A stretch of DNA of 64,000 nucleotides, taken from assembly GCA_041674845.1 (NCBI GenBank), contig JBAYUY010000001.1, forward strand, positions 235,432-299,431, given 5' to 3'. Below are positions 3,271-19,639 of the stretch, one piece after another. This stretch comes from Candidatus Shapirobacteria bacterium. GTDB lineage: Bacteria > Patescibacteriota > Microgenomatia > UBA12405. Numbering within the stretch: position 1 is the first letter of the stretch; each line of letters begins with the position of its first letter. The notes beneath the pieces are model-generated. The model worked only from the letters and a program-made list of their open reading frames with translations. It did no database searches and was not told the origin of the DNA. Both the position numbers and the translations under genes were made by a program.

Positions 3271-3271
3271 A

Positions 3272-5002: not shown

Positions 5003-5027
5003 TGTTAAATAGTATCACATTTGGTTA

Positions 5028-5055
5028 TTGACTTCGGGTAATGTTTGGATAGAAT
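5028..5055 (+). promoter_or_regulatory. sigma70-like promoter of lexA, probably giving a leaderless mRNA
   Basis: TTGACT (5028-5033), 16-nt spacer, TAGAAT (5050-5055). The ATG is at 5062, only 6 nt after the -10, and there is no Shine-Dalgarno. Confidence 0.45.
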
Positions 5056-5061
5056 AAATAT

Positions 5062-5676
5062 ATGGTAGCAATAATATACAAAAGACAAAAAGAAATTTTG
5101 GAGTTAATTATAAAATCAATTAGCAAATATGGCTATGCACCGACTTTGACGGAAATTGCTGACAAACTCAATTTGTCTTCGTTGGCAACTGTGCATGAAC
5201 ATTTGGCAACGTTGGAAAAAAAGGGTTTTATCCGACGATATCGTGGTGCTGTTCGGGGTATTGAAGTCCTTGACCAAGATAATGGTAATCGTAATAGTGT
5301 GGAACTGCCTATTTTAGGATTTATAGCTTGTGGATCTCCTTTGGAACCATATACTGACCCAAATGCGACACTGGCTGTATCAGCAGGACTGGTTAAAGCT
5401 GGTGATAAATCTTTTGTTTTACAGGCCAAAGGTGATTCGATGATAGACGATGGAATTTTGAGTGGTGATTTTGTAGTGGTGAAAGAACAGCAAGAGGCAC
5501 ACAACGGTGATATTGTGGTGGCGGTATTAAAAAATGGTTTTGCAACTTTAAAGCGTTACTACCAAGAAATTGATAGAATTAGATTGCAACCGGCCAATTC
5601 AACTATGTCGCCAATGTATGTGACTGATGTTCAAATACGGGGAAAGGTGGTGGCTGTTATTAGACAATTTGCATAA
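5062..5676 (+). CDS. lexA: LexA repressor (S24 peptidase)
   Basis: 204 aa with an N-terminal winged-helix LexA DNA-binding domain and a C-terminal S24 autopeptidase with the Ser (AKGDSMIDDGI) and Lys (LKR) motifs. Confidence 0.85.
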   Translation: MVAIIYKRQKEILELIIKSISKYGYAPTLTEIADKLNLSSLATVHEHLATLEKKGFIRRYRGAVRGIEVLDQDNGNRNSVELPILGFIACGSPLEPYTDPNATLAVSAGLVKAGDKSFVLQAKGDSMIDDGILSGDFVVVKEQQEAHNGDIVVAVLKNGFATLKRYYQEIDRIRLQPANSTMSPMYVTDVQIRGKVVAVIRQFA

Positions 5677-5678
5677 CG

Positions 5679-6317
5679 ATGCTATATATTATTTCGACAC
5701 CAATTGGGAATTTAAAAGACATTACTTTGCGAGCGGTTGAAACACTGGGAAAATTAGACATACTGTTATGTGAAGATACGAGGAAAACAGGATTTTTGTT
5801 GAGTGAACTAAAAATAGAGAATAAACCAAAACTATTATCGTTTTATGATGAAGTCGAAGCTCAAAAAATTCCTGAGGTAATCAAAATGTTACAAGATAAT
5901 ATGGATGTTGGATTGGTGACTGATGCTGGAACTCCCCTACTGTCTGATCCTGGTTGGTTGCTTGTCAAAAAATGCCGAGAATTGGGGATAAGCTATACGG
6001 CATTACCCGGGGCATGTGCGGCTATTAATGCTGTTGTTTTGTCGGGTTTGCCAATACAAAGGTTTTCGTTTTTGGGTTTTATGCCAAAAAAAGAGGGGGA
6101 TATCAAAAAAATATTGTTAAAATATAAGGATTTTGAAGGAGTTAAAGTTTTGTATGAATCCCCTATTCGAGTAGAAAAAACTTTTAAATTAATCAAAGAA
6201 ATTTGTGGAGAAGATACAGAAATTCGAATTATACGGGAAATGACAAAGAAGTTTGAAGAGGTGTTGATCAGCGTCAGCGCTAACACTAGGGGTGAAGTGG
6301 TAATTTTGTGGAATTGA
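5679..6317 (+). CDS. rsmI: 16S rRNA (cytidine1402-2'-O)-methyltransferase RsmI
   Basis: 212 aa with a tetrapyrrole-methylase-fold N-terminus (LYIISTPIGNLKDITLRAVETL..DILLCEDTR). Confidence 0.75.
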   Translation: MLYIISTPIGNLKDITLRAVETLGKLDILLCEDTRKTGFLLSELKIENKPKLLSFYDEVEAQKIPEVIKMLQDNMDVGLVTDAGTPLLSDPGWLLVKKCRELGISYTALPGACAAINAVVLSGLPIQRFSFLGFMPKKEGDIKKILLKYKDFEGVKVLYESPIRVEKTFKLIKEICGEDTEIRIIREMTKKFEEVLISVSANTRGEVVILWN

Positions 6318-6333
6318 TGATATTATATAGGAT

Positions 6334-6675
6334 ATGATAAATGTCAACATTGCTAGATGGAATGGCGAAAGGTGGAAAATTGTACGTAAAATCGTAGATA
6401 ATAATAATCCTGTGTTTTATAATAGGAGTAATTTGGGTAATATGTTGGGTGGTGATGTTGTACCAATAGCTTTTGAAAGTGTTATAGATTCACCTGAAGG
6501 TATTACTGTTAGAGCTAAAAACGGGTTGACACTTGATTTTGAAGCTACTGATTTAAGTTTTGTTGGATCAATAACTGACAAACCTTTGTTTGTCCGAAAG
6601 TCTGTAGTTATCCCTTTTAAAACAGAAATTAAAAAAAATGGCGATTTGGGTTTGCGATTTAGTTTTAAAAAATAA
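6334..6675 (+). CDS. small hypothetical protein (first of tandem trio)
   Basis: 113-aa ORF, beta-rich by composition, with no recognisable motif. Confidence 0.45.
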   Translation: MINVNIARWNGERWKIVRKIVDNNNPVFYNRSNLGNMLGGDVVPIAFESVIDSPEGITVRAKNGLTLDFEATDLSFVGSITDKPLFVRKSVVIPFKTEIKKNGDLGLRFSFKK

Positions 6676-6690
6676 TTGTTAATATAAGAT

Positions 6691-6996
6691 ATGACAACTA
6701 AAGTTGATACTGTAACCTCAGGTTTTGATTGTTGGGTTATGATTAGTGGTTCTCAAAAAGTATTTTCTGGTGGTTCGAGAACAATTGAAGGTGTTGGGGT
6801 TGTTACAGATACTGAAACTTGTTCTAGGGTGGTGTTTGATAATAAGGATGTTTGGATGTGTGTTGGTAATGGAAGTCCAACTCGTGTTAACGCGAATAGT
6901 ATTGATGTATCTGGCGAGGTAGTGTTTATGAAAAATTCCAAAAGAAATGTTGGTTCAAATGGCACTAGAGTTAGTTTTGTAAAACGAATGATATAA
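6691..6996 (+). CDS. small hypothetical protein (second of trio; Gly/Val/Ser-rich)
   Basis: 101-aa ORF, 15 nt after the previous gene. Confidence 0.45.
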   Translation: MTTKVDTVTSGFDCWVMISGSQKVFSGGSRTIEGVGVVTDTETCSRVVFDNKDVWMCVGNGSPTRVNANSIDVSGEVVFMKNSKRNVGSNGTRVSFVKRMI

Positions 6997-7004
6997 TTTG
7001 ATTT

Positions 7005-7325
7005 ATGTCGTCAGTATCAGTTGTAAAAAAATCAGGTGAAATATTTGTTGAAGTTAAAGGCTGTTGTTTTGATTTAAAAGATAAAACAGATCGGATTGAT
7101 TTACTTAGATTATTATCGCCAAATCATGTAGTTTTACCGGGACTCGATAAAATTGTAGTTGAAGAGGGAAATACTTATGTTTTGGCAAATAGTGATTTAC
7201 CTATTGTGACTTTAGGTGGTGAGGGGATGATTAGTAGTCGAAAACCCTTTCATGTCACTGACTCAATTGTAATTGCCCCTGCAAATTTGGCTAATGGCGA
7301 TTTAGCAATGAGAGTCAGAGCATAA
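7005..7325 (+). CDS. small hypothetical protein (third of trio)
   Basis: 106-aa ORF, 8 nt after the previous gene. Confidence 0.45.
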   Translation: MSSVSVVKKSGEIFVEVKGCCFDLKDKTDRIDLLRLLSPNHVVLPGLDKIVVEEGNTYVLANSDLPIVTLGGEGMISSRKPFHVTDSIVIAPANLANGDLAMRVRA

Positions 7326-7329
7326 TTTT

Positions 7330-9594
7330 TTATTTGTGATTGATCTTGCGGTTTTCGGCCCAATGGATGATTTCACGAGTGTGATCAATAGCATCGGGTG
7401 AAACAGAAATAGATGTGATCCCCCATTTGACTAATTTTTCGACTAAATCGGGATGGTTGCTAGGTGCTTGACCACAAATGCCAACCATTATTCCACGTTT
7501 TTTTGCCTTAGTTACCAATCTTTTTAAACTCCATAAAACTGCTGGATCCATTTCATTAAAATCACGTGCTACTTCAGAATTATCACGATCGAGACCAAGT
7601 GTTAACATGGTTAAATCGTTGCTGCCAATGGAAATACCATCAATACCAACGTCAATAAATTTGTCCAAGAGTATTACATTACTGGGAATTTCGGCCATCA
7701 TAAAAAGTTTAAATGATGGGCTTCGTAGTAATCCCGCTCCGGCAATAATTTTTTTGATTTCAAAAAGTTCTCGAGGTGTACGGCAAAAAGGTATCATAAG
7801 CCATAAGTTTTTTAGGCTAAATTTGTTTCGTACTATTTTGATGGCCTCTAATTCCATTTGAAAAACTTCGGGAGAATATATATATCGTCCTGCTCCTCGA
7901 AACCCTAACATGGGATTTGATTCTTCTGGTTCATATAATTTTCCGAAGCTGAGTGATCGGTATTCGTTGGTTTTGAAATCGGAAGCTCGGTATATTACAG
8001 GGCGAGGATTAAAGTTTTTGCAGAATTCAGTGATACCTATGGCTAATTTGTTGATGTATTCTTTTTGTCTATTTTCGGCAATTATGCGTTTGGGATGCAC
8101 TCCAATGTTGGCCATCATAAATTCAGCCCGAAGAAGACCGATACCATCAACATTTTTTTTGCTAATTGTTTTTGACAATTCTGGTTCACCTAAATTTACA
8201 TATAATTTGGTGGCAGTTTTGATATTAATTTTTATTGTTGGTTTGTTTATTTCTGTGGGAAGGTTGGTCAAAAGATTACCAGACCAAATACGTCCAGTAG
8301 AACCATCAATAGTGACAATGTCACCTTCTTTAATACGAGATGTGGCCGTTTTGGTACCAACAACACAGGCAACTCCTAATTCACGAGAGACTATTGCGGC
8401 ATGAGAAGTTTGACCTCCTTTGTCAGTAATTATGCCAGCAACTTTTTTCATGGCTGGAACAAAATCGGGGGTAGTCATATCGATAACCATTATTTGTCCA
8501 CTTTTGACACGATTTATTTCTTTTTCATTTTTAATTAATATGGCAGGGCCTGAAGCAAAACCTGGGCTAGCTGCTTCACCTTGTAGTATTGGGATATCGG
8601 TTATTTCAAATTTTTTGGTTGCAGCATTGCTTAATGTTGTAATTGGTCGAGTTTGTACTATATAAAATTTATCCTTTTCTATAGCAAATTCTATATCTTG
8701 AGGTTTACCATAATGATTGTGTAATTTTTGACCAATTTTGGCAATTTTTAGAGCTGTAACATCATTGATTTTTATTTTATTTTGTTTGTATTTTGGGACG
8801 GCTACTTCGGCCGTCTCATTAACATCTTTGATTAATTGACGGTCTTGAGAGACATTATTTTTTTGTTTAATGGTCCAATTTGACTTGTCGATAATAAATT
8901 GATCTGGAGTAACAACTCCTTGAACAATGTATTCACCTAGTCCCCAGATAGTTTCAATGATAATTTCGTTTTTATTATTTGAAACAGGATTGGCAGTAAA
9001 CATTATTCCTGAAATTTCACTTTGAACCATTTTTTGGACTGGGACAGCGACACCGACTTTGAAATGGTCATATTTCTTTTTGACTCGATAAAAAATTGAT
9101 CGAGGAGTGAATAGTGACGCCCAGCAATCACGAACACGATGTAATACGTTGCTTTCACCTATTACATTGAGAAATGTGTCTTGTTGTCCGGCAAAGGAGG
9201 CGTCAAGACTATCTTCGGCGGTTGCTGACGATCGAACAGCAACAGGCGCATCTTTTAGTCCGGCAAAAGATCCTAATTTTTTGTAGGCAGTCATTATTTG
9301 GATACCAACATCATGAGTAAATTCAGACTTTTTGATTAATTCACGAATTTTTTTGCTGGCTGATTGAAGTTCGTCGGGGTGATCGACATTGGTAATGCTC
9401 AATATGTTTTTAATTTGGGGTTTTAATTTATTTGTTTCAATAAAATCAAAATAGGTTTCTGCTGTTACAACAAAACCGTTTGGAACAGGGATGCCCATAC
9501 TATACATTTCTCCTAAATTTGCTCCTTTTCCTCCGACTATATTTACATCTTCAAAACGAATATCTTTAAACCAGAGCAAACAACTTTTCTTCAT
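7330..9594 (-). CDS. ppsA: phosphoenolpyruvate synthase (pyruvate, water dikinase)
   Basis: 754 aa. Three parts are visible: a PPDK N-terminal ATP-grasp region (VGGKGANLGEM), a mobile His domain (GGQTSHAAIVSRELG) and a C-terminal PEP-utilising TIM barrel (GSNDLTM). Confidence 0.9.
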   Translation of the reverse strand: MKKSCLLWFKDIRFEDVNIVGGKGANLGEMYSMGIPVPNGFVVTAETYFDFIETNKLKPQIKNILSITNVDHPDELQSASKKIRELIKKSEFTHDVGIQIMTAYKKLGSFAGLKDAPVAVRSSATAEDSLDASFAGQQDTFLNVIGESNVLHRVRDCWASLFTPRSIFYRVKKKYDHFKVGVAVPVQKMVQSEISGIMFTANPVSNNKNEIIIETIWGLGEYIVQGVVTPDQFIIDKSNWTIKQKNNVSQDRQLIKDVNETAEVAVPKYKQNKIKINDVTALKIAKIGQKLHNHYGKPQDIEFAIEKDKFYIVQTRPITTLSNAATKKFEITDIPILQGEAASPGFASGPAILIKNEKEINRVKSGQIMVIDMTTPDFVPAMKKVAGIITDKGGQTSHAAIVSRELGVACVVGTKTATSRIKEGDIVTIDGSTGRIWSGNLLTNLPTEINKPTIKINIKTATKLYVNLGEPELSKTISKKNVDGIGLLRAEFMMANIGVHPKRIIAENRQKEYINKLAIGITEFCKNFNPRPVIYRASDFKTNEYRSLSFGKLYEPEESNPMLGFRGAGRYIYSPEVFQMELEAIKIVRNKFSLKNLWLMIPFCRTPRELFEIKKIIAGAGLLRSPSFKLFMMAEIPSNVILLDKFIDVGIDGISIGSNDLTMLTLGLDRDNSEVARDFNEMDPAVLWSLKRLVTKAKKRGIMVGICGQAPSNHPDLVEKLVKWGITSISVSPDAIDHTREIIHWAENRKINHK

Positions 9595-9737
9595 AATTTA
9601 AAATTTTTAATTTTTAATTTTTAATCAAATCTCAATAACAAATTTTTAATTTAAAAACAAAAGATGTTTTTATATAATTTATATTTTTTTTAAAATTTAA
9701 GAATTTAAAATTGCTTAAAAATTAAAAATTTTAAATT
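9595..9737. repeat. AT-only heptad-repeat spacer with 23-bp perfect inverted repeat
   Basis: 9595-9617 (AATTTAAAATTTTTAATTTTTAA) is the exact reverse complement of 9715-9737. The array of AATTTTT/AAAAATT heptads abuts the ppsA start codon. Confidence 0.8.
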
Positions 9738-9742
9738 AAAAA

Positions 9743-10150
9743 TTATTTGTCGATTGATGGTTTCCAACCTCGGTTGGGTAAATTTCTAACTTCGTCAGTT
9801 TCGTCGGGACGAGAATAATCGTCTTGAAGTCGATGGGTTGTGCCTGTTTCACCGTTACTGGCTTCGATTAAAACTGTGTCGGTAATGGCCATAAAACGAT
9901 GGACAATTTTTGGTTTGATGGTGTAGCCGTATTCGGGAATCATGGTTTCAATTTTAGTTGTTTCAATAGTTTTACCCATTAATACTTGACAATTTCCTGA
10001 AATTAGGGACATGGTTTCAATTCGATCGTCATGATATTGGAGAGATAGTTTACCTCCGGCATTTAATTTGAGGATTTTTAGAGTGTAGGGCAAACCTGGT
10101 TCAGTGAGAATCGTTTCAGAACCCCAAGGTTTAGTAATAATAGTAGGCAT
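9743..10150 (-). CDS. cupin-domain protein (mannose-6-phosphate isomerase type II-like)
   Basis: 135 aa with KPWGSE...LSLQYHDDRIE..., typical of the cupin_2 / MPI C-terminal domain. Confidence 0.6.
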   Translation of the reverse strand: MPTIITKPWGSETILTEPGLPYTLKILKLNAGGKLSLQYHDDRIETMSLISGNCQVLMGKTIETTKIETMIPEYGYTIKPKIVHRFMAITDTVLIEASNGETGTTHRLQDDYSRPDETDEVRNLPNRGWKPSIDK

Positions 10151-10812: not shown

Positions 10813-11355
10813 GTGTTATATTGGTTAATGAACGAAATATGTCCAAAATGTGGTGCTCCATTATCCCCTGTTACTGAAACTCCAACAGGTCGTCAGTTGC
10901 AAAAATGTTCTAAAGGTAGTTGGAACAAGGAATTAAAAAAAACTGAGGGTTGTGATTATGTTCTTTGGCTCGAAGTGGCCCCAAAAGAGCTTGATGAAGT
11001 TTGTCCAAAATGTGGCTCACAATTAGTTTTGTCGGTGACTCGTTTTGGCAAAAAAATGAAAAAGTGTAGTAAGGGTACCTGGAATAAAGAACTAAAAAAA
11101 GCAGAAGGTTGTGATTATATAGAATGGATAAATGGAACTACCGAAAAACTTGAGGAAGATTGTCCTGATTGTGGGGAAAAATTGGTTTTGTTTACCACTG
11201 CTGCTGGCAAAAAAATGAAAAAATGTTCAACTTCAGGTTGGGATAGTGCCAAAAAACAAGCTACAGGATGTAAATATATCGAATGGCTAAAACCGGGTGA
11301 TTATCAAGCAAAAGAAGATAATGGCGGAGAAGAATTCTTGCCACCAGAGGAATAA
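10813..11355 (+). CDS. protein with three tandem topoisomerase-type C4 zinc-ribbon repeats
   Basis: Three roughly 54-aa repeats of the form CP(K/D)CG-x-L...KKMKKCSKG(T/S)WNKELKK(A/T)EGCDYIEW. The likely true start is the ATG at 10828 (MNEICPKCG). Confidence 0.6.
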   Translation: MLYWLMNEICPKCGAPLSPVTETPTGRQLQKCSKGSWNKELKKTEGCDYVLWLEVAPKELDEVCPKCGSQLVLSVTRFGKKMKKCSKGTWNKELKKAEGCDYIEWINGTTEKLEEDCPDCGEKLVLFTTAAGKKMKKCSTSGWDSAKKQATGCKYIEWLKPGDYQAKEDNGGEEFLPPEE

Positions 11356-11364
11356 TTTTTTCTG

Positions 11365-12219
11365 TTAAAGAGTCATAGTATTTATGTCGGTTGATGTGTT
11401 TTTGTTGGTATCAATGGTAATACCCATTCTTTGAGCATATGTTTGAATCTTGATATTTTGATTCTTTATTAGACTGTCACCTGCTTTACTATAATTTAAT
11501 TGACGTTTTGCCTGGTTTAGTAAAGATTCGGCGTTAGATATATTTGTTATATGAGCAATGGCATGAAGAATGGTAGCTTGTCGATAATGTGAATCAGTAT
11601 TAGCGGCTAGATATTTTATTTGATTGTCATTAAGTTGTTTTTGGAGTGAACATCGTGGATCGATAAGACTAGACTGTCCTAATCGGTGAACCATACTTTC
11701 CATTAATATCACGTTTATTATATTGGGAGTTAAAATTATATTGTCGGGTAAAAAAATATTTTGATTAATATTGAGATTATTTGATACATTGATGGCATAT
11801 GATAATGGTTGTCGTTCTATGGTATCCGGAAAAAATGTTGAAAATATGGCAATTTTTTGAATTTCTTGGAGAGAAAACGAATGTTGGTTGCAAATACTGT
11901 CAATTTCGTTTAAAAGCTTGGATTCGCTGGCTGTTGTTTCGTGTTTATTTAAGTGGACTAAATTTTGTCGATATATTTCAGATAACCCAACAATAACTTG
12001 ATCAGGTCGTGTTTCTTGACGACAAAGATATAGTAATAAATTTGCTGGTGATGTTATTTTGTCATCACTATTTATTTCAATTAATTTGGTGTGAAATAAG
12101 CTTAATATTCCTGTTGGAGGTGAGGGGTTTCGGGTTATGAATTCGGATGGATCAGGTGTTGGATATTTTTGATGTGAAAAGAGTGTCTCAAGGCGTAAAT
12201 TATTTTTTTTTAGACCCAC
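11365..12219 (-). CDS. hypothetical protein
   Basis: 284-aa ORF with no recognisable motif. Confidence 0.5.
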   Translation of the reverse strand: MGLKKNNLRLETLFSHQKYPTPDPSEFITRNPSPPTGILSLFHTKLIEINSDDKITSPANLLLYLCRQETRPDQVIVGLSEIYRQNLVHLNKHETTASESKLLNEIDSICNQHSFSLQEIQKIAIFSTFFPDTIERQPLSYAINVSNNLNINQNIFLPDNIILTPNIINVILMESMVHRLGQSSLIDPRCSLQKQLNDNQIKYLAANTDSHYRQATILHAIAHITNISNAESLLNQAKRQLNYSKAGDSLIKNQNIKIQTYAQRMGITIDTNKNTSTDINTMTL

Positions 12220-12565
12220 ATTGTATATTTTATTACAAAGTTTGTCGAAGTCAAATATTTTGATTTATTTTGTAGGTTTAAAAATCATCATCAACGTTTC
12301 CTGCTCCACATCCACCATATTTGTATCCTTTGTTGAGTAAACTGTCAAAACCATGATGTTTGTTGTATTGAAAATTAGGTATTTGTGCGTGTAAGCGAAC
12401 ATTAAGGATGTCATTTTGTTGAATCATGTCTTCGGACGTAATTAGTCCGCCTTCGGAGGTAAGTATTGTTCTTGCCCGATCTAGCCGGGGTGTTGCGGTT
12501 AAATCGTCTTTTCTGAAATAGAAATCAACTTTTACTTTTTTTATATTTATTTTAATGTATGAGAT

Positions 12566-12698
12566 GTGTGAGCTGTTATGACGAAATTCGAACTTATTTT
12601 AAAAATAACTTTTAAATATTGAGCTCACAGCGTCGGCCCGCCGCCCGCACCGGTGGGCCTAGCTGTTCGCGTTATTTATAATTCCGCCTTCGCGGAAT
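12566..12698. repeat. inverted repeat IR-A, left copy (core plus arm X)
   Basis: Reverse complement of 16377-16509. It is perfect for 110 nt (12566-12675 vs 16400-16509), followed by 1 mismatch and a 1-nt indel. It contains a GC-rich block, GGCCCGCCGCCCGCACCGGTGGGCC. Confidence 0.9.
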
Positions 12699-12708
12699 TT
12701 TCTTTTTT
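12680..12708 (+). terminator. intrinsic terminator-like hairpin at inner end of IR-A
   Basis: AATTCCGC-CTTC-GCGGAATT followed by TTCTTTTTT. Confidence 0.45.
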
Positions 12709-12776
12709 GCGCGCGCGGGAAACACTCCATTGTATCCCGACTATCGTCGGGATGTAAAATTTTATTATAAATATTT

Positions 12777-12785
12777 TGGTATATA
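12777..12785 (+). promoter_or_regulatory. extended -10 promoter element for the GNAT gene (near-leaderless)
   Basis: TGGTATATA sits 8 nt before the ATG at 12794. No Shine-Dalgarno is present. Confidence 0.3.
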
Positions 12786-12793
12786 ATTTAATA

Positions 12794-13636
12794 ATGGAAT
12801 ATAAAATAAGACAAGCAACTAGGGAAGAGTTGAATATTGCCATAGAATGGGCTGCAGATGAGGGTTGGAATCCTGGGTTATATGACGGCAATTGTTTTTA
12901 CTCTACAGATACAACTGGTTTTTACATGGGTTTTCTGGATGGTCAACCAATATCATCAATATCGGCAGTGGCTTATGATGAAAAATTTGGATTTATTGGA
13001 TTTTATATTGTAAAAAAAGAGTTTCGGGGTCAAGGATATGGTTTTAAATTATGGAACGAAGCATTAAAACATCTATCAACACAAAACATTGGACTTGATG
13101 GCGTTATTTCACAACAAGAAAATTACCAAAAGTCAGGTTTCAAATTAGCTTATCGAAATATACGATATGAGGGTAAAGGATCAGATGGAACATTGGAGAA
13201 TTCAAATTTAATTTTACTTAAAGATGTTGATTTTGACCAAATACTAAATTATGATAATTTGGTTTTCCCTACAAATCGCTCAACATTTCTCAAATCATGG
13301 ATTCAACAACCTCAAAGTCTAGCCATTGGTTATGTGAAAGATTCAATCCTTAAAGGATATGGAATGGTACGACCTTGTAGACAAGGGTACAAAATTGGTC
13401 CTCTTTTTGCAGATAACCAGGACATTGCTGAAATTCTTTTTCAAAAATTGCAAAATTTTGTTGGCAATAACGACCTGATGTATTTAGATGTACCGGAAAT
13501 GAACAGCGAAGCTACTAAATTGGCAAATAAATATGGTATGAAACCTATGTTTGAGACAGCTAGAATGTACACAAAAGGAATACCCACAACATCAATAAAT
13601 AAGGTTTATGGTGTAACAACTTTTGAATTAGGATAG
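12794..13636 (+). CDS. GNAT family N-acetyltransferase with YitH-type C-terminal domain
   Basis: The ORF track starts at TTG 12776, but the ATG at 12794 (MEYKIRQA) is more plausible. The GNAT acetyl-CoA motif FRGQGYGFKLW is present. Confidence 0.7.
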   Translation: MEYKIRQATREELNIAIEWAADEGWNPGLYDGNCFYSTDTTGFYMGFLDGQPISSISAVAYDEKFGFIGFYIVKKEFRGQGYGFKLWNEALKHLSTQNIGLDGVISQQENYQKSGFKLAYRNIRYEGKGSDGTLENSNLILLKDVDFDQILNYDNLVFPTNRSTFLKSWIQQPQSLAIGYVKDSILKGYGMVRPCRQGYKIGPLFADNQDIAEILFQKLQNFVGNNDLMYLDVPEMNSEATKLANKYGMKPMFETARMYTKGIPTTSINKVYGVTTFELG

Positions 13637-13649
13637 ACACTTAACAAGA

Positions 13650-14177
13650 TTAGACAACAACATCGTAAAAACATAATAATGTTCCCTGTTTGTTAATTTG
13701 TTCAATTTTTGTTAGCTGCAAATTAATACCAAAATTGTCACAGATTAGATTATGACCCTCACCAAACATCTTTGGCTCAACAGTCAAAATCATTTTGTCC
13801 ACCAGTTTTTCTTTTAAAAAGATAGTGTATATTTGCGATCCCCCAACCAACAATGCCTTTTTATGACCTCGTGACTCAAGATTTCTAATTATGTCTTTGG
13901 GAGCATTGTCAGTAAATTCCAATTGATTTAGAACACATGAATCAAGAAATTTGTTCGGATTATTCGTCACAACGACCCTAAGTGTATTTTGAGTTAATAC
14001 AATATTACTTTTGACCGAATCGTAGGTCTTTCTGCCCATTATCAAAACCGTACTACTTTCTTTTAGTTTTAGAAAATAAGACTTATCTTCTTTCGACGTC
14101 CATTTGTAAATATTTGAATCATAATTATTGGTAGTTTTGCCATTTACTGAAATTACTGACACCATAGAAATAATCAT
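13650..14177 (-). CDS. RibD C-terminal domain / dihydrofolate-reductase-like reductase
   Basis: 175 aa: VSVNGKT...IMGRKTYDS...LLVGGSQIY...LTVEPKMFGEG, typical of the RibD_C family. Confidence 0.65.
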   Translation of the reverse strand: MIISMVSVISVNGKTTNNYDSNIYKWTSKEDKSYFLKLKESSTVLIMGRKTYDSVKSNIVLTQNTLRVVVTNNPNKFLDSCVLNQLEFTDNAPKDIIRNLESRGHKKALLVGGSQIYTIFLKEKLVDKMILTVEPKMFGEGHNLICDNFGINLQLTKIEQINKQGTLLCFYDVVV

Positions 14178-15520
14178 TGCAACCTCCTAACCTGTGGGTA
14201 AACTTTAGATAGTAAATATAAACTTCCAGTAACAGCAACTAAATTTGATTCGTTTGTAGCTGTCTTAATGGCTGACTCTGGATTGTTAATAATTATGTAT
14301 TTATTAAACTTAAGTTGTTTGAGAATTAAAACCAAGTCACTAATTGTTTGAGTAACTGCAATCATATCTTGATCGTCAACAACAAAGCTCGTTAATATTA
14401 TCTGACTTGCAATTGTGGTAATCGACCGAAGCATTTTTTTAGCTTCTTTCTTTTGTTTAAAAGCTACAACAAAAATAAATTTTTGATTTGGATAAAAATA
14501 TTTTAAGCTTTTAATAAAACCAGACATTTTTTGTGGATTATGGGCCCCATCAAAAATTACTGTAGACGTATCATTTATTCTAAAAACGTCCATTCTTCCT
14601 AAAAATTCAAAATTTGAAAATGTGTGCAAGATAATATCTTGTTTTAAATTAAAATGATCGCGATTACTAATAATCTTTAATACACTTAGAGCTAAAGCGC
14701 TATTTTCTATTTGATAGAGCGCTTGTGTGTTTATAAATATTTTATTTATTATCAAACCGTCGAAGTTGTAATTATATGTTAGTCCATTTGTAGCTAAGTG
14801 AATATTTTTGTAATTGACATTACTTTGAATGTAATATAGTTTTGAATGGTTGTCGGTTACTACCTTATTTATTATATTTCTGGCACTTTTTGTTTGCCAC
14901 AATGACAAAACAGTATTTTTTTGATGGATAATTCCAGCTTTTTGAGATGCAATTTTGGCGATGGTGTTCCCAAGAATTCTAGTATGGTCAAACCCCAATT
15001 TAGTGATGACTACTAATTTATTTTCACTGTCAACTACATTCGTTCCATCCATTAATCCACCCATACCCGTTTCGACTACGGCATAATCGACTTTATGTTG
15101 ATAGAAAGCCAAAAAAAACATCGCCACCATAATTTCAAAATATGTTGGATTGCCATAATTATTATTAATAGTTTTATCGATTGCTGGGATAATTTTATTT
15201 AATAGGTTTACGAAATTGCTTTGACTAATATTTTTATTATTGATTTGAATCCGTTCTCGAATATCAAAAATATGGGGAGAAACAGTCAGTCCAACCTTAA
15301 ATCCATGATTTTTTAACAAAAAACTAAGGTACGAAGCAGTCGACCCTTTCCCGGAAGTTCCAGCAATATGAATAACAGGATATTTATTTTGAGGGTCACC
15401 AATGCATTTTAATAAATATTTTTGCCTATCTAGTCCTAATGTTCCCGGATATCTTAATTTTCCTTTGGGAATTGATTTATGTAGATAATCAAGGGCGTGT
15501 TGATAATTAGTTATAATCAT
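14174..15520 (-). CDS. folC: folylpolyglutamate synthase / dihydrofolate synthase
   Basis: 448 aa with a Mur-ligase-type P-loop (HIAGTSGKGST) and FolC-like layout. 4-nt overlap with the downstream reductase gene. Confidence 0.8.
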   Translation of the reverse strand: MIITNYQHALDYLHKSIPKGKLRYPGTLGLDRQKYLLKCIGDPQNKYPVIHIAGTSGKGSTASYLSFLLKNHGFKVGLTVSPHIFDIRERIQINNKNISQSNFVNLLNKIIPAIDKTINNNYGNPTYFEIMVAMFFLAFYQHKVDYAVVETGMGGLMDGTNVVDSENKLVVITKLGFDHTRILGNTIAKIASQKAGIIHQKNTVLSLWQTKSARNIINKVVTDNHSKLYYIQSNVNYKNIHLATNGLTYNYNFDGLIINKIFINTQALYQIENSALALSVLKIISNRDHFNLKQDIILHTFSNFEFLGRMDVFRINDTSTVIFDGAHNPQKMSGFIKSLKYFYPNQKFIFVVAFKQKKEAKKMLRSITTIASQIILTSFVVDDQDMIAVTQTISDLVLILKQLKFNKYIIINNPESAIKTATNESNLVAVTGSLYLLSKVYPQVRRLQ

Positions 15521-15525
15521 TTTGT

Positions 15526-16188
15526 TTAATTAATTTTTAACCATCTAATTCCCAGATATACAAACGGAGTAGAAATAATCGACATACAGGTTTTCAAAAA
15601 CCAATATGGCAATATAACTCCCCATAAAAACCCAAAATTCGCTGAAGGCGTGACTGAAGTAGAGTAAAAAGCAATTGTCATAAAAATAAATGTATCTATA
15701 AATAATGCTAATGTATTTGAAAGATTATTTCGAAACCACAGTTTACTATTTCCCATTTTGGATTTAAGTTTAAAGAATATATTTATATCTAAAAAATTTG
15801 AGATAAACATTGCGATTAAACTTGCAATCGAGATTCTTATCGACTGAGAAAAAACCAAAAAATAGCTTGGATTTGTTGATAGAAATCTGCTTGATGAAGG
15901 TAATGAAACAGCAAAAGCAGAAAAGATAGCAATAAAAAATATAATAAGTATTGAAATTTTGGCTAAGTTTTTGGCACGAGCAAAACCATAAACTTCAGTA
16001 ACAATATCGTTTATGGAGAATACCCAAGGGATTAAAAACATCCCTACTGCTCCAGTTAAATTTAGTCCAAATAAATTAAATAAAGGAAAAGTTTTTGAGC
16101 CCATTAGCTCAGCTGTTACAATACAAAAAATGTATATTGCAATTAAGAAATCAGGTTTATGTTGACTTGTAGAAAAAAGTGTAATCAT
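15526..16188 (-). CDS. yhhQ: queuosine-precursor (preQ0/preQ1) transporter, YhhQ/VUT family
   Basis: 220 aa, polytopic, with the YhhQ-like motif FSINDIVTEVYGFARAKNL. Confidence 0.65.
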   Translation of the reverse strand: MITLFSTSQHKPDFLIAIYIFCIVTAELMGSKTFPLFNLFGLNLTGAVGMFLIPWVFSINDIVTEVYGFARAKNLAKISILIIFFIAIFSAFAVSLPSSSRFLSTNPSYFLVFSQSIRISIASLIAMFISNFLDINIFFKLKSKMGNSKLWFRNNLSNTLALFIDTFIFMTIAFYSTSVTPSANFGFLWGVILPYWFLKTCMSIISTPFVYLGIRWLKIN

Positions 16189-16286
16189 TGGTTTAAAAAA
16201 TAATTAAAAGTTAGCCCAAAATAGGACTAAAAATACTTTTGAAATTATTTGTTTAAACCATGGTATGTTTCGTTGATTAACAGCAC

Positions 16287-16295
16287 ATTATACCA
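16287..16295 (-). promoter_or_regulatory. extended -10 element upstream of yhhQ
   Basis: The minus strand reads TGGTATAAT about 95 nt upstream of the yhhQ ATG. Confidence 0.3.
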
Positions 16296-16376
16296 CTAAA
16301 AATTTATTGAACATTTTTGGAGTAGAATTATGTAAGTACATTAAAAATTTTTGCGTTTTCATCGAGCCGATATTTT

Positions 16377-16509
16377 TTCCGCCGAAGGCGGAATTATAGA
16401 TAACGCGAACAGCTAGGCCCACCGGTGCGGGCGGCGGGCCGACGCTGTGAGCTCAATATTTAAAAGTTATTTTTAAAATAAGTTCGAATTTCGTCATAAC
16501 AGCTCACAC
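16377..16509. repeat. inverted repeat IR-A, right copy (arm X plus core)
   Basis: Reverse complement of 12566-12698 (see the left copy). Confidence 0.9.
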
Positions 16510-16605
16510 TCAGGGAATTCGCATCATGGCGAGGCAGGCGACGCCGCGCGAGTGCGGCCGCGCGAAGCGTCGCAAACGGCTTTTTTAAATCGTCCTTCAA
16601 AAAAA
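16504..16605. repeat. inverted repeat IR-B, left copy (core plus arm Y), forming the 5' flank/UTR of the recombinase gene
   Basis: 16504-16592 is the exact reverse complement of 18042-18130 (89 nt). After a 15-nt indel, 13 more nt match. It contains a GC-rich block, GCGACGCCGCGCGAGTGCGGCCGCGCGAAGCGTCGC. Confidence 0.9.
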
Positions 16606-16632
16606 ATGAAAACGCAAAAATTTGAGTAACAT

Positions 16633-18189
16633 ATGAAAAAATTTATTATCTATTGTCGAAAATCCACAGACGAAAAAGACAAACAGGTTTTGTCCATCGA
16701 AGCCCAGATTGCTGAACTCACCGAATATGCCAAACGCGAACGACTCGAAATAGTTGAAGTCATAAACGAAGCCAAAACAGCCAAAGTCCCCGGTCGAGAA
16801 ATATTTAATCAAGTACTAGCCAAAATCGAATCAGGTCAGGCCAACGCCATTTTATCGTGGCACCCCGACCGATTGGCTCGTAACAGTATCGACGGCGGAA
16901 AAATTATCTACTTACTTGATACTGGACACCTTGTCGACCTTAAATTTCCTTCCTTTTGGTTTGAAAATACACCCCAAGGCAAATTTATGCTCTCGATAGC
17001 TTTTGGCCAGTCAAAATATTATGTCGATAATTTATCCGAGAATGTTAAACGAGGCAATCGTCAAAAAATTAGAAATGGCGTTTGGCCAAACAAAGCACCC
17101 ATTGGCTACGATAACGACAAACTAACAAAATCAATTCATCTCAATCCAGAAAAAGCTAAGGCCGTCAAAAAAGCTTTCGAAATGTTTGTCGCGGGTCAAA
17201 CTTTTACACAAATATCCCTATTTATGGCTAAATGTGGCATAACCAAAGGCAATGGTAAACCAAAGTCAATTAACCAAATCAGGCGAATGTTGTGTAAAAA
17301 GTTTTATATTGGCATTCTTGATTATGGTGGTGAGAAATCAAAAGGTATTCACAAATGTTTTATCAATCGTAAGCTTTTTGACAAGGCTCAAGAACGACTA
17401 GAGTATTTAAATCACCCTCGACCACACGGTCATTATTTTGCTTTTTCTGGATTGATGAAATGTGGGGAGTGTGGCGCTTCAATTACCGCCGAAACAAAAT
17501 CTAAACATTATCTTCGCACCAATCGCGACGCCACCTACACTTATTATCGCTGTACAAAAAAACTTAAACCCTGCGCTCAGCACTACATTAACGAATCAAA
17601 ATTAGTTGACCAAGTGGCGCAGCTTGTCAGTCTCGCCTCACTCCCCACATCGTGGGCCAAACAATGGGAACAATGGCTAGAACGAGATAGAATCGAGGAG
17701 GAGCAATCTGGGCAACAAAACCTGTTGTCTTTGGATAATGAGATTCAAACAATTGACCTTAAAATGGGCAAACTACTTGATGCATATTTGGACGACACCA
17801 TCGAAGAAAGTATTTACAAGAGTAAAAAGAATCAATTGTTTGAAGAAAAATTAAAGATGGAGGAGAAAAAAGCCAAAACTAATGATTACGGTTCGAGTTG
17901 GCTCGAACCTTTTTCTGAATTTATTATTGGCGCACAGGATGCGCCAAATCGCGCGCGCAAAAAAGAAAATTTGAGTCGACTCTCGTCGACTCTAAAAAAT
18001 ATCGGCTCGAACTTATTTTTGAAGGACGGAGAGCTGGTAATCGATTTAAAAAAGCCGTTTGCGACGCTTCGCGCGGCCGCACTCGCGCGGCGTCGCCTGC
18101 CTCGCCATGATGCGAATTCCCTGAGTGTGACTCCAGGGGGAATCGAACCCCCGATTGCTTGGATGAAAACCAAGAGTCCTAACCACTAG
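16633..18189 (+). CDS. large serine recombinase (integrase)
   Basis: 518 aa. It has an N-terminal resolvase catalytic domain (YCRKSTDEKDKQVLSIEAQ ... ARNSIDGGKIIYLLD), a recombinase domain, a zinc-ribbon (CGECGASITA...YTYYRCTKK) and a coiled-coil. The 3' end runs through IR-B and 62 nt into tRNA-Glu on the opposite strand. Confidence 0.9.
   Translation: MKKFIIYCRKSTDEKDKQVLSIEAQIAELTEYAKRERLEIVEVINEAKTAKVPGREIFNQVLAKIESGQANAILSWHPDRLARNSIDGGKIIYLLDTGHLVDLKFPSFWFENTPQGKFMLSIAFGQSKYYVDNLSENVKRGNRQKIRNGVWPNKAPIGYDNDKLTKSIHLNPEKAKAVKKAFEMFVAGQTFTQISLFMAKCGITKGNGKPKSINQIRRMLCKKFYIGILDYGGEKSKGIHKCFINRKLFDKAQERLEYLNHPRPHGHYFAFSGLMKCGECGASITAETKSKHYLRTNRDATYTYYRCTKKLKPCAQHYINESKLVDQVAQLVSLASLPTSWAKQWEQWLERDRIEEEQSGQQNLLSLDNEIQTIDLKMGKLLDAYLDDTIEESIYKSKKNQLFEEKLKMEEKKAKTNDYGSSWLEPFSEFIIGAQDAPNRARKKENLSRLSSTLKNIGSNLFLKDGELVIDLKKPFATLRAAALARRRLPRHDANSLSVTPGGIEPPIAWMKTKSPNH
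18016..18130. repeat. inverted repeat IR-B, right copy (arm Y plus core) inside the recombinase 3' coding end
   Basis: Reverse complement of 16504-16605 with a 15-nt (5-codon) insertion. Confidence 0.9.
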
Positions 18190-18200
18190 ACGATGGAGCC
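18128..18200 (-). tRNA. tRNA-Glu (anticodon UUC)
   Basis: The cloverleaf is readable by eye: acceptor GGCTCCA/TGGAGTC, anticodon stem CTTGG/CCAAG with loop TTTTCAT, and T-loop GTTCGAT. CCA is not encoded. Confidence 0.9.
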
Positions 18201-18225
18201 TAAAAATAAACCTAATTGTTAAATT

Positions 18226-18273
18226 GTATCGAACCCCGATTGTCCGCCTAGGCGGAAGTCCTAACTAATGGGT
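18226..18273 (-). pseudogene. tRNA-Glu-like remnant (T-arm and D-arm pieces, no acceptor stem)
   Basis: ATCGAACCCCGATTG (18228-18242) and AGTCCTAAC (18257-18265) match the adjacent tRNA-Glu. The anticodon arm is replaced by a TCCGCC-TA-GGCGGA hairpin. The remnant overlaps the last 8 codons and stop of lgt. Confidence 0.5.
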
Positions 18274-18880
18274 TCACTTTGTGGACAGGGTATTTTATCA
18301 AATAAATGCCCAGTAATACAAATATAAATGATATTAAGTTGGCTATTTTGAAATTGGAGATAATCCAAGTATCGTTTCGAAAATATTCAGTGATAATACG
18401 AATGATGCCGTAACCAATTAGATATATTGCTGTGGGATTTACTTTTAATTTTTTAATAATTAAAAATAATACAAAACAAAGTAGTGATTCGAGCCACCAA
18501 ATGGGTATTTCACCATTAACATAATTGCCAAATCGACCTATTGCTTGAGCTAAAGGTAAAATAGGTGTTATTGAATCGGTAATTGACAAAACCTTTATTT
18601 TGTTTAATTTGGAAAAAATAAAAATAAATAAAAATCCGGCAATAAGGCCACCGTAAATACCCAATCCCCCGTTAGGTATATTGATAATTTGTTCTAAATT
18701 TTGGGAATAATAGTGCCAGGTGTCGATGACGTGATAGGCTCTGGCACCTAATAACATAAAAATTAATAACCCAAAAATAAAAAAATTAAATTTTGACTTG
18801 GAAATTGTTTGGTTATTTTTTTCAAAATAATTGAGGCTGATGGCAACTGCGATACCGATGATGAGACCGTATAAATGCAT
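18248..18880 (-). CDS. lgt: prolipoprotein diacylglyceryl transferase
   Basis: 210 aa, polytopic, with Lgt motifs GGLGIYGGLIAG and GRFGNYVNGE. The ATG directly abuts the CCA end of tRNA-Lys. Confidence 0.75.
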   Translation of the reverse strand: MHLYGLIIGIAVAISLNYFEKNNQTISKSKFNFFIFGLLIFMLLGARAYHVIDTWHYYSQNLEQIINIPNGGLGIYGGLIAGFLFIFIFSKLNKIKVLSITDSITPILPLAQAIGRFGNYVNGEIPIWWLESLLCFVLFLIIKKLKVNPTAIYLIGYGIIRIITEYFRNDTWIISNFKIANLISFIFVLLGIYLIKYPVHKVNPLVRTSA

Positions 18881-18955
18881 TGGTGGGTCCAGCGGGACTT
18901 GAACCCGCGACCAATTGCTTAAAAGGCAACTGCTCTACCACTGAGCTATAGACCC
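18881..18955 (-). tRNA. tRNA-Lys (anticodon UUU), CCA encoded
   Basis: Acceptor GGGTCTA/TGGACCC, anticodon loop CTTTTAA, T-loop TTCAAGT, 3' CCA. Confidence 0.9.
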
Positions 18956-18962
18956 ATGAGTG

Positions 18963-19274
18963 TTAAAGAGATCGGGCTCTTTCTTCTCGGAGGAAGTAAA
19001 GTTTTGATCTTCTGACTTTGCGTTTTGGATCACGGATTTTTTTGATTGAATCAACCCATGGTGAGTTAACTGGAAAGATACGTTCAACAGTAACTCCGTC
19101 AGTGGCTTTTTTGGAAACTAAAAAGGTCAAGTTATCACCACGTCCAGTGATAGCCATAATAATGCCATCGAAAGCCTGTAATCTTTCTTTATCTTTTTCT
19201 TTAATTTTGTATTGAACCTTGACTGTTTCGCCGATGTTAAAGGTAATATCTTTGTGTATAAATTTTAAGGACAT
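18963..19274 (-). CDS. rplS: 50S ribosomal protein L19
   Basis: 103 aa with FNIGETVKVQYKIKE..ERLQAFDGIIMA...VERIFPVNSP, typical of L19. Confidence 0.85.
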   Translation of the reverse strand: MSLKFIHKDITFNIGETVKVQYKIKEKDKERLQAFDGIIMAITGRGDNLTFLVSKKATDGVTVERIFPVNSPWVDSIKKIRDPKRKVRRSKLYFLREERARSL

Positions 19275-19312
19275 GTAGGTATTTTATATTATTAAAGCAA
19301 AGTTAGCAACAT

Positions 19313-19341
19313 TTGACTTTATTGGTAACAAGTATTACAAT
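19313..19341 (+). promoter_or_regulatory. near-consensus sigma70 promoter
   Basis: TTGACT (19313-19318), 17-nt spacer, TACAAT (19336-19341). Confidence 0.55.
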
Positions 19342-19415
19342 GGAGTGTAACCGTATGATAAATATTTGTTATTTACAGGTTACCTCCAACATCCGCCAGT
19401 GGGCGGTTTTTTTTT
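19342..19415 (+). ncRNA. candidate small RNA or terminator-type leader (attenuator/riboswitch-like) of the downstream 60-aa ORF
   Basis: GGAGTGTAACC (19342-19352) can pair with GGTTACCTCC (19378-19387). An intrinsic terminator follows. No match to a known riboswitch class was recognised by eye. Confidence 0.4.
19393..19415 (+). terminator. rho-independent terminator
   Basis: CCGCC-AGTG-GGCGG followed by nine T. Confidence 0.7.
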
Positions 19416-19456
19416 GCCCAAAATTTATAATTTTAATAAAGGAGGTGAATATATAA

Positions 19457-19639
19457 ATGGCAGTTGTAAAAGGTAAAAAAGAAGAAGATACACAAAAACC
19501 TGTAGTTGTAGTTGAAGTAGGACAAAAAATTACTGATGTTCTGGGGGATGATATTGAAATTAAGTTGGGAGAGAGTTTGGGTACACGACCAAATTTGTTT
19601 GACAGATTTAGAGGTTTGATAGACATTGTAACCAGATAA
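19457..19639 (+). CDS. small acidic hypothetical protein
   Basis: 60-aa ORF preceded by a strong Shine-Dalgarno, AAAGGAGGTGA (19438-19448). Confidence 0.55.
   Translation: MAVVKGKKEEDTQKPVVVVEVGQKITDVLGDDIEIKLGESLGTRPNLFDRFRGLIDIVTR

Follow-up and report, generated by a model that had tools for sequence, protein, structure and literature searches.

Structure of the locus

The window analyzed here is the whole 64,000 nucleotide (nt) stretch of contig JBAYUY010000001.1 (positions 235,432 to 299,431, forward strand) from a Candidatus Shapirobacteria bacterium. Positions 12566–18130 of the window contain a large serine recombinase (LSR) gene, a segment of cargo genes and two pairs of long inverted repeats, termed arms X and Y, and the region ends within a tRNA-Glu gene. 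This 5.6-kb region is rather probably one integrated copy of an LSR element family that is widespread in Patescibacteria and whose recombinase targets the extreme 3′ end of tRNA genes. The elements have a fixed layout, which consists of attL (flank-core-X), the cargo, an inverted and intact attP (X′-core′-Y), the recombinase cassette and attR (Y′-core-tRNA).

A short core is found three times by string search, as GTGTGA at positions 12566–12571 and 18125–18130 and as the complement TCACAC at positions 16504–16509. The first copy (plus strand) is the left end of the element, where attL is formed by host flank, core and X, and it is here that homology with the related loci L164, L166 and L082 begins. 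The third copy (plus strand) is the right end, where Y′, core and tRNA form attR. The distal copy of arm X follows the left core at positions 12572–12697. Self-BLAST aligns positions 12566–12697 with positions 16377–16509 as inverted repeat X, with 133 aligned columns, 98.5% identity and an E-value of 6e-64. A base-by-base alignment shows that the first 110 nt of this pair including the core are perfect, and that the copies differ by one mismatch, at position 12676, and one gap, a 1-nt indel beyond it. Inverted repeat Y (16504–16592 vs 18042–18130) spans 89 nt with 100% identity (E-value = 3e-43), after which there is a 15-nt indel and then approximately 12 more matching nt (18016–18028 vs 16593–16605). 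The proximal copy, Y′, is at positions 18016–18124. Between the two ends of the element is the central, intact and inverted attP (positions 16377–16605), with X′ at 16377–16503, core′ TCACAC at 16504–16509 and Y at 16510–16592, extended to 16605. The GC content of the arms reaches 0.55, against a background of about 0.30.

The target gene, tRNA-Glu(UUC), is on the minus strand at positions 18127–18200 (ARAGORN; Rfam concurs) and represents the right half-site of attB; its T-loop sequence TCGAAC starts 12 nt from the core. The right core shares the last 4 nt of the tRNA, which is left intact. An Rfam scan of positions 11000–19500 gave tRNAs as the sole matches. The original prediction, which was made from the letters of the window, had described the three cores, the extent and imperfections of both arms, their GC-rich blocks and the overlap of the core with an intact tRNA-Glu. 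All of these were recovered by the string search, the self-BLAST that it had proposed, the alignment, the GC content and the two tRNA searches.

Self-BLAST also displays three short, perfect inverted repeats that the original prediction did not mention. Repeat a pairs positions 12696–12717 (block a′) with 17950–17971, repeat b pairs 16362–16378 (block b′) with 17994–18010, and repeat U pairs 16345–16362 (block U′) with 16606–16623. Comparison with relatives shows that a′ is the left edge of the conserved backbone and that the variable cargo starts just beyond it. Block U is a conserved leader before the recombinase start codon, as seen by self-BLAST and family comparison. Blocks a and b are part of a structured region within the 3′ end of the recombinase open reading frame (positions 17929–18010), which is delimited by self-BLAST, terminator-like matches and family comparison. 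It consists of hairpin h (17929–17945), block a, a hairpin or palindrome p (17973–17992) and block b, which contains TCGAAC.

By folding and inspection, the distal X arm has a GC hairpin stem at positions 12635–12659 and an inner hairpin at positions 12680–12699 that is followed by a T run. The latter is terminator-like and points inward. Arm Y has a GC hairpin (positions 16538–16573) followed by CTTTTTT, and a hairpin is found in Y′ at positions 18061–18096.

A degenerate tRNA-Glu-like fragment is located at positions 18213–18262 (minus strand), directly 5′ of the intact tRNA-Glu and overlapping the 3′ end of Lgt. The fragment reads TCGAACCCCGATTG...AGTCCTAAC and the intact tRNA-Glu has AATCGAACCCCCGATTG...AGTCCTAAC. 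An earlier integration or duplication may have left it behind, and it could be usable as a pseudo-attB.

Recombinase and attachment sites

The recombinase gene (positions 16633–18189, plus strand) has a translated sequence of 518 amino acids (aa). The Pfam domains are PF00239 Resolvase (9e-22), PF07508 Recombinase (1.5e-12) and PF13408 Zn_ribbon_recom (8e-11). The sequence YCRKSTDE is at residues 7–14 and the catalytic serine is likely to be residue 11, within YCRKST. Residues 158–384 align with the C-terminal domains of the A118 integrase, which is the nearest solved structure. The domain matches, the motif and the A118 alignment place the protein among the LSRs, i.e. it has a resolvase catalytic domain with a nucleophilic serine, a recombinase domain and a zinc ribbon. 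The nearest named families in NCBIfam are CcrB and XisF, and both are far under their cut-offs; the Ccr scores are 101 vs 900 bits for CcrB, 71 vs 700 for CcrA and 61 vs 900 for CcrC.

The recombinase open reading frame has no stop codon of its own, a feature that the original prediction did not mention. It runs through Y′, which encodes the C-terminal tail, and through the core into the antisense strand of the tRNA. The predicted protein of the excised form would be 513 aa long and end in ..SLSVSCYDEIRTYFKNNF. Recombinases of the family are conserved as far as ..VGSNFFLKDRRLxxxxKxGFxAL, and therefore the first part of Y′ is coding; the tail past this point is not conserved. In one contig, P0007, the recombinase ends at a non-tRNA junction.

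One core is common to all three sites in 41 other, non-redundant loci, and its sequence varies between elements with the tRNA used. In the window and in these 41 loci the hybrid ends thus share a short core, as they do in LSR elements. Arm X opens with a conserved stretch, roughly GTTTACGAAAAATGTCGAAC, and in the window the distal copy has the motif TTCGAAC, a recombinase half-site, at positions 12587–12593. Counted from the core, TCGAA starts across the family at +16/17 (mode 16) in arm X and at +12 in the tRNA, where the motif is the T-loop, and the X-minus-tRNA offset is 4–5 nt in 36 of 39 loci. In published sites the motif of the zinc-ribbon domain is 5 bp nearer the centre in attB than in attP (Rutherford et al., PMC3783163). 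Because the 4–5 nt shift matches this difference, X would be a P-type half-site and the tRNA a B-type half-site, in a spacing test that is made at the sequence level and concerns the right half-site only, Y and the left flank showing no matching pair. Arm Y holds only a purine-rich, GGAAT-like stretch and the host left flank is not conserved. The spacing shift, together with the ending of homology at the cores, bears out the earlier proposal that the three sites are attL, an inverted complete attP and attR.

Related loci in other genomes

The survey comprises 160 related loci, 80 of them from contigs of one genome per species and 80 from metagenomes, with recombinases that are 42–97% identical to the window recombinase. 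The Y pair is found around the recombinase gene in 127 of the 160 loci, or 106 of 115 where the flank is sufficient. A called minus-strand tRNA overlaps the outer end of Y′ by 4–10 nt in 90 of the 160. The X pair abuts Y in 66, mostly with a shared core of 4–11 nt, and the few outliers are alignment artefacts. Loci without a detected distal X still have the X′ arm to the left of Y, and therefore almost every member of the family has the intact, inverted attP-like site immediately before the recombinase. The search of related genomes for X-core-Y, which had been proposed from the window alone, thus finds this arrangement in almost all of the 160 loci. An empty tRNA-Glu site was not found among close relatives.

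The target tRNAs belong to at least 12 species and include Gln, Glu, Lys, Val, Pro, Trp, Ser, Leu, Ile, Thr, Gly and Phe. The reading of a universal T-loop sequence would explain this wide range. Downstream of Y′ in three loci (L108, L110 and L116) the post-core sequence (GGAGACGGAGGGAATCGAACCCTCGTCC...) resembles the 3′ end of a transfer-messenger RNA (tmRNA) or a long-arm tRNA that was not called, ARAGORN having been run for tRNAs only. The tmRNA gene (ssrA) is probably also a target.

No relatives, and no viral or plasmid-like contigs, were found in IMG/VR. Exact look-up of the flanking L19 sequence gave only the source contig and a 2.3-kb fragment, and look-up of Lgt gave nothing. Many carrier contigs (e.g. 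L006, L014, L019–L022, L028–L030) are from metagenome-assembled genomes labelled uncultured Gammaproteobacteria, Pseudomonadales, Actinomycetota or Brocadia. Either these labels or bins are wrong or the family extends past Patescibacteria; L072, which is on a 1.8-Mb Ignavibacteriota contig, may be a genuine case outside of this group.

Cargo and the cargo cassette

The exchangeable cargo of the window is at positions 12718–16333. Alignment with relatives shows the variable region to run from just after a′ (12717) to approximately 11 nt before U′ (16334). By open reading frame and domain search it encodes a GNAT acetyltransferase on the plus strand (12776–13636) and three genes on the minus strand, i.e. 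a RibD_C/DHFR-like gene (13650–14177), a FolC-like Mur ligase (14174–15520) and a Vut_1 transporter (15526–16188). Cargo is exchanged between the blocks even among close relatives, and that of the window is entirely unlike the cargo of L082/L166, L164 and L084, which share its backbone.

The cargo of the family is mixed and includes restriction-modification genes, Vsr, HNH nucleases, M23 peptidases, LexA fusions, large surface proteins, enolase and transporters. No gene of the cargo segments is common to more than a few elements; the top Pfam family is found in 3 of 100 open reading frames, and on clustering of the cargo proteins only a small HTH_3 protein recurs, in 6 of 59 elements. Compact elements with 0.5–0.9 kb of cargo have no replication gene, and no obvious transfer gene is present in these or in the surveyed cargo. 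GC content does not separate cargo from host.

The short blocks occupy constant places. In approximately 50 loci a′ is directly inside the distal X, b′ is directly left of the proximal X′ and U′ is slightly further left, and the partners a and b are in the recombinase 3′ region with U just after Y. Read on the other strand, the cargo unit has the order X-b-(hairpin)-U-[cargo]-hairpin-a-X′, and the recombinase unit is Y-U-[recombinase]-hairpin-a-hairpin-b-Y′. The two copies of a block co-vary within an element, and in L078, L036, L045 and the window each shows the same local variation. Decayed recombinase fragments are found beside the distal X in L013, L022 and L046; the Ser-tRNA clade has them too, but in another place. 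Judged by the order of its parts, the cargo cassette appears to be a hollowed-out copy of the recombinase cassette in inverted orientation, with the leader U and the 3′ blocks a and b kept and the open reading frame replaced, and the extra fragments agree with such a derivation. The cargo genes are mostly oriented as the leader block sets, and therefore the two cassettes diverge from the central site.

A common core motif, CGCAAAAA(A/T)T, is present in blocks U and a. Its orientation with respect to the cassette is the same in both, and therefore direct copies of the motif flank each cassette. Translation of the (CG)n part of block a uses one frame in the window and another in L041, a sign that the sequence is constrained as DNA. 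In L038, L041, L046 and L058 the first cargo open reading frame after the leader opens with the same codons (ATGGCCGCCCCGGTTGT...), and the downstream genes differ. These codons may be a relic N-terminus or a common translation start module.

The GC hairpins of the arms are conserved in position and differ in stem sequence. Some precede T runs that face into the element, and terminator-like matches fall in the arms. These hairpins are drawn from single-sequence folds and inspection, with covariation described without a statistical score; RNAalifold on 34 X arms gave no consensus fold from an alignment that is gap-ridden.

Mobility of the whole unit

Four loci, L046 (tRNA-Glu), L022 (tRNA-Val), L013 (tRNA-Lys) and L097, have a common backbone and several cargo genes in common. 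Their similarity begins exactly at the distal core and ends at the tRNA-side core, and the flanks are unrelated. This bounding of homology by the cores, across different tRNA genes, marks the whole unit between the left and right cores as the mobile unit, as judged from the sequence comparison. Five close relatives of the window element, with a backbone that is approximately 93% identical, are at tRNA-Glu(CUC) or tRNA-Glu(UUC) in other hosts and their cargo is in every case different. In L164, L165, L166 and L082 the backbone is 93% identical, the target is tRNA-Glu(CUC) and the cargo differs.

The arm copies within an element are usually 97–100% identical, and the arms of related elements diverge more, e.g. 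identity is 100% within elements vs 95.5% between L046 and L022. In some elements, such as L038, the identity of both pairs has fallen to about 91%.

Proposed mechanism

The recombinase would integrate a circular form by recombining attP with attB inside the short core. One subunit would read TCGAAC, which in the tRNA is the T-loop and which in X is the same motif located 4–5 bp further out. The excised circle would have two inverted attP regions of about 230 bp that separate the cargo and the recombinase. Of the two, the attP used for integration would be the one at the 3′ end of the recombinase open reading frame, which it overlaps, and the other attP would stay intact between the divergent cassettes. 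The inward GC hairpins with their T runs are predicted to act as terminators for the tRNA and the neighboring host gene and to insulate the cassettes.

The internal attP is predicted to be a recombinase-bound operator and an insulator for both cassettes, like res between tnpA and tnpR in Tn3. It may also be recombination-competent, i.e. inert to attL and attR and reactive with a second attB. This combined role as operator/insulator and competent attP is held with moderate to low confidence.

A stronger claim would be that the family forms a distinct class of integrative element with a built-in second attP, which serves both as its own operator and as a permanently armed attachment site; this we consider doubtful. 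If it were true, an integrated element could use the armed attP to rearrange or to move from one tRNA gene to another without a directionality factor, and a flip of the recombinase cassette behind the tRNA promoter would offer an alternative activation. If the T-loop is what the LSR reads, nearly every tRNA gene would be a potential landing site, and the 4–11-bp core alone would set it. In a bolder variant the paired arms would fold a competence-imported single strand into a double-stranded attP.

Several points weigh against the integrated-element reading and its mechanism. All of the recombination steps (the circle, the empty attB and the junctions) are deduced from comparative structure. 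If the circle has two identical attP sites, both should be usable, yet more than 95% of loci have the recombinase facing the tRNA, and this needs a bias of integration or selection. Recombination at the core is conservative and cannot homogenise the arms, and therefore the near-perfect identity of arms and blocks needs homogenisation or gene conversion, or else a constraint on identity. Blocks a, b and U (17–25 nt) are too short for ordinary homologous exchange, and a simple operator role does not account for the identity of arms and blocks. A conserved recombination directionality factor was not found in the cargo by Pfam survey and clustering; possibly the factor is host-encoded, or none is needed. 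The X motif has no clear counterpart in the Y half-site, which makes the site very asymmetric for an LSR.

Orientation of the cassettes

Both cassettes have the same orientation in approximately 55 of 56 non-redundant two-arm loci, the exception being L032, where the cargo unit is flipped. The recombinase faces the tRNA in 90 loci, and in 4 of the 160 the tRNA is upstream of the recombinase and co-directional with it. Two of these four, L001 and L002, are secondarily rearranged, and for the other two, L023 and L134, the match covers no more than a truncated stretch of the query.

L002 has a 90% identical recombinase (452 aa) and the same Lgt/tRNA-Lys/DnaE flank. Its order, tRNA-core′-Y-U-recombinase-a-X′-core′, corresponds to the exact product that would arise by deletion between the two a blocks after a flip of the recombinase cassette. 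L001 (VFLE01) has no X arm, and a flipped recombinase cassette is located between two tRNAs. On one side is tRNA-Glu(UUC) with the Lgt/L19/DnaE flank of the window, and on the other side is tRNA-Glu(CUC) with the DprA/ComM flank of L164 and L166. Recombination between the internal attP and a second attB would yield just such a product, and L001 is the best sign, if an indirect one, that the internal attP is recombination-competent. Flipped states have thus existed, although rarely, i.e. L032 and the precursors of L001 and L002.

These loci bear on the leading alternative, a programmed double inversion switch similar to Hin, in which the recombinase would flip its own cassette (central x right site) and the cargo (left x central site). 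In one variant the flipped recombinase cassette, co-directional behind the tRNA promoter, would be a rare and transient "on" state that leads to excision or rearrangement. The structure lends itself to such a switch, as inverted cores at the outer ends of perfect inverted repeats bracket each cassette, and the identical inner half-sites mean that inversions would regenerate the same site types. The flipped cargo of L032, the post-flip a-a deletion of L002 and the flipped cassette of L001 at the same host flank agree with it as well. The nearest named relatives of the recombinase are the Ccr recombinases, which are less strictly directional. However, free inversion should give mixed orientations across independent genomes, and the fixed orientation described above therefore argues, from genome comparison, against an unbiased free switch. 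An invertase would populate both orientations, whereas the counts here are about 55 of 56 for the cassettes and 90 vs 4 for the recombinase relative to the tRNA, with all four of the flipped cases either rearranged or matched to a truncated query. In addition, canonical LSRs do not recombine site pairings other than attP with attB, and these include attP with attL or attR (PMC3783163). The switch is considered unlikely, although a strongly biased one with a flipped state that does not last long is conceivable. The original prediction had suggested that both segments may be invertible; this does not hold in the sense of a free switch, but rare flips (L032 and the precursors of L001 and L002) agree with it.

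Other explanations

A second alternative is that the inverted repeats serve a single-stranded DNA stage. Pairing of X with X′ and of Y with Y′ would present a double-stranded attP dumbbell after uptake, by competence or another single-stranded route, and the strand would be processed to a circle without second-strand synthesis across the site. Such a stage would fit the many conserved hairpins with different stems in the arms and in the recombinase 3′ region, the near-perfect complementarity of the repeat copies with short blocks co-varying within elements, and the lack of an obvious replication or transfer gene in compact elements or surveyed cargo. However, block-order analysis shows that the five repeat pairs cross and cannot all pair at once, and RNAalifold returned no common fold for the aligned X arms. 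The partners of a serine recombinase must be duplex, and the single-stranded loop would contain the recombinase gene itself. The explanation is thought very improbable.

The original prediction had also offered a fossil of nested or tandem integration followed by inversion. Taken as a one-off and functionless accident, in which two elements entered tandem or nested at tRNA-Glu, this is scarcely credible. Tandem accretion does occur, with direct Y′-core-X hybrid junctions in L144 and L033, and recombinase gene fragments are present beside the distal X, but the same layout and the three auxiliary repeats recur in most of the 160 loci, i.e. in dozens of elements with recombinases 42–97% identical, at various tRNA genes and in various hosts. 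An ancestral duplication is plausible, yet it would have been inherited and maintained and would not be an accident of the window locus.

An assembly artefact, either a chimeric join at the repeats or a mix of integrated and excised forms, is excluded for practical purposes: many related short contigs do break inside the arms, but the window arms (89–133 nt) are shorter than k (141) and lie on an 808-kb k141 contig, the same layout is present in independent assemblies made with several assemblers, including the complete or near-complete genomes CP011210.1, CP055307.1 and OZ246414.1 and a 1.8-Mb contig, and the consistent orientation across about 55 loci is unlike random resolution.

Further arrangements were considered and rejected. 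Two independent elements, each with a palindromic attP (Y′-Y and X′-X), do not fit a core that has no palindromic dinucleotide and whose polarity is c, c′, c. The cargo is not host DNA caught by an inversion, as it travels with the backbone between different tRNA genes. Serine recombinase crossovers at the inner arm boundaries (a/X′, X/b and Y/U) would place the joins at the core-distal arm ends, which is impossible by core crossover. The block order fits neither an inverted dimer of a simple circle nor a hairpin-ended linear duplex, and a single fold that uses all five repeat pairs fails because the pairs cross.

Comparison with known systems

By enzyme and site logic the family consists of LSR integrative elements, and its layout is apparently undescribed. 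The original prediction knew of no serine integrase element with this arrangement, and no description of it was found in the literature. With the integrase elements of the phiC31, Bxb1, A118/LI and SPbeta type the family shares the Resolvase, Recombinase and zinc ribbon domains (at the Pfam level here), a short common core, hybrid end sites and a motif that is 4–5 bp nearer the centre in the bacterial site. Unlike these elements, the window element keeps an intact second attP, in inverted orientation, inside the integrated form. The arms of the family are identical over 90–160 nt, vs about 25 nt; the recombinase open reading frame crosses the crossover site without its own stop; there is no conserved directionality factor; and the targets are the T-loop/3′ end of many tRNA species.

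The staphylococcal cassette chromosome (SCC), which is mobilized by CcrAB or CcrC, is likewise an LSR-driven island at the 3′ end of a conserved housekeeping gene. Cargo-only and recombinase-bearing units occur in both, as does tandem accretion (L144 and L033 in this family). Excision and integration of SCC need no separate factor. In composite SCC arrays, however, the internal sites are direct repeats and hybrid sites, whereas the internal site of the family is a complete attP and is inverted. The Ccr scores of 61–101 bits vs cut-offs of 700–900 exclude membership, and the target in the window is a tRNA and not the 3′ end of rlmH.

The likeness to the yeast 2-micron plasmid, raised in the original prediction, is fair as topology only, for a predicted circle with two inverted attP regions. 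Such a circle would have two unique segments between site-carrying inverted repeats with the recombinase gene in one of them, as in the plasmid. The 2-micron circle, however, is an autonomous plasmid with inversion-driven copy amplification, and its Flp is a tyrosine recombinase. The window family has a serine recombinase, no replication function is seen and the orientation is almost fixed, and it does not belong with the 2-micron type.

In the Hin/Gin/Cin systems, too, a segment is flanked by inverted repeats with the crossover sites at their outer ends, and the hin gene is inside the segment. These enzymes are small serine recombinases that have a C-terminal helix-turn-helix and act on sites of 26 bp with the help of a Fis-bound enhancer, and the segment is found in either orientation. 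The window family differs in its 518-aa LSR, its long-arm attP/attL/attR sites and its one dominant orientation, and is not a member of this group. In Tn3 and gamma-delta a serine recombinase site is likewise located between divergent units (tnpA and tnpR). There, res is both a recombination site and an operator, a parallel that is offered as analogy only. However, res resolves cointegrates between direct copies, and an operator role in the window family is a prediction.

What appears to be new is the intact inverted attP that is kept between two divergent cassettes in the integrated element, the long identical arms, the recombinase open reading frame across the crossover site, the cargo cassette made from an emptied recombinase cassette, and the T-loop-guided targeting of many tRNA species. 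A conserved intact attP in the integrated element is absent from the current picture of serine integrases and raises the question of how directionality is controlled without a factor. An LSR that reads a universal T-loop and a short variable core may be of interest where integrases are sought whose natural landing sites can be predicted.

The genomes of Patescibacteria are tiny, and few mobile elements have been recognised in them. This family is frequent in the group, with hundreds of loci across two collections. Its cargo includes restriction-modification, surface-protein and metabolic genes and is swapped fast, and the family appears able to join two tRNA loci (L001). It is therefore probably a real driver of gene flow and rearrangement in Patescibacteria.

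Composite and rearranged elements

Tandem accretion is seen in L144 (approximately 4851 onward), where Y′-core runs straight into the X arm of a different element type. L060 (7938–14737) and L036 (8024–15345) each contain two complete elements around tRNA clusters. L033 (1740–11570; Collierbacteria LCKO01000001) is a composite of two element types. Its recombinase gene is chimeric and has the 5′ part of one clade and the 3′ end of another, including Y′, and a Y′(type 1)-core-X(type 2) junction in direct orientation is located 5 kb upstream. This structure points to recombination between co-resident elements.

The L084 element (2114–10137; Ga0075681_111), 95% identical at the aa level, has no upstream copy of Y, and X′-core′ is joined directly to the leader. 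Its distal X is broken by a 560-nt insert and the Lgt stop codon overlaps the core. The whole element, together with tRNA-Glu, is inverted relative to the host flanks, and no series of simple site-specific steps was found that would lead to this state.

Just past the simple element in L002 (11560–12750) there is a gene for a 219-aa membrane protein within an inverted repeat of its own. This repeat is 109 nt long, 98% identical and unrelated to the X and Y arms.

Upstream of the left end of the element in L164 (867–3673) there are three direct repeats of 80–158 nt, which are 88–98% identical and are spaced by two Fic-domain genes; the last repeat runs into the core. The arrangement suggests that other cassettes have been stacked in an array at this site. 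The L164 locus also has a second LSR (529 aa) beside primase/D5-like genes.

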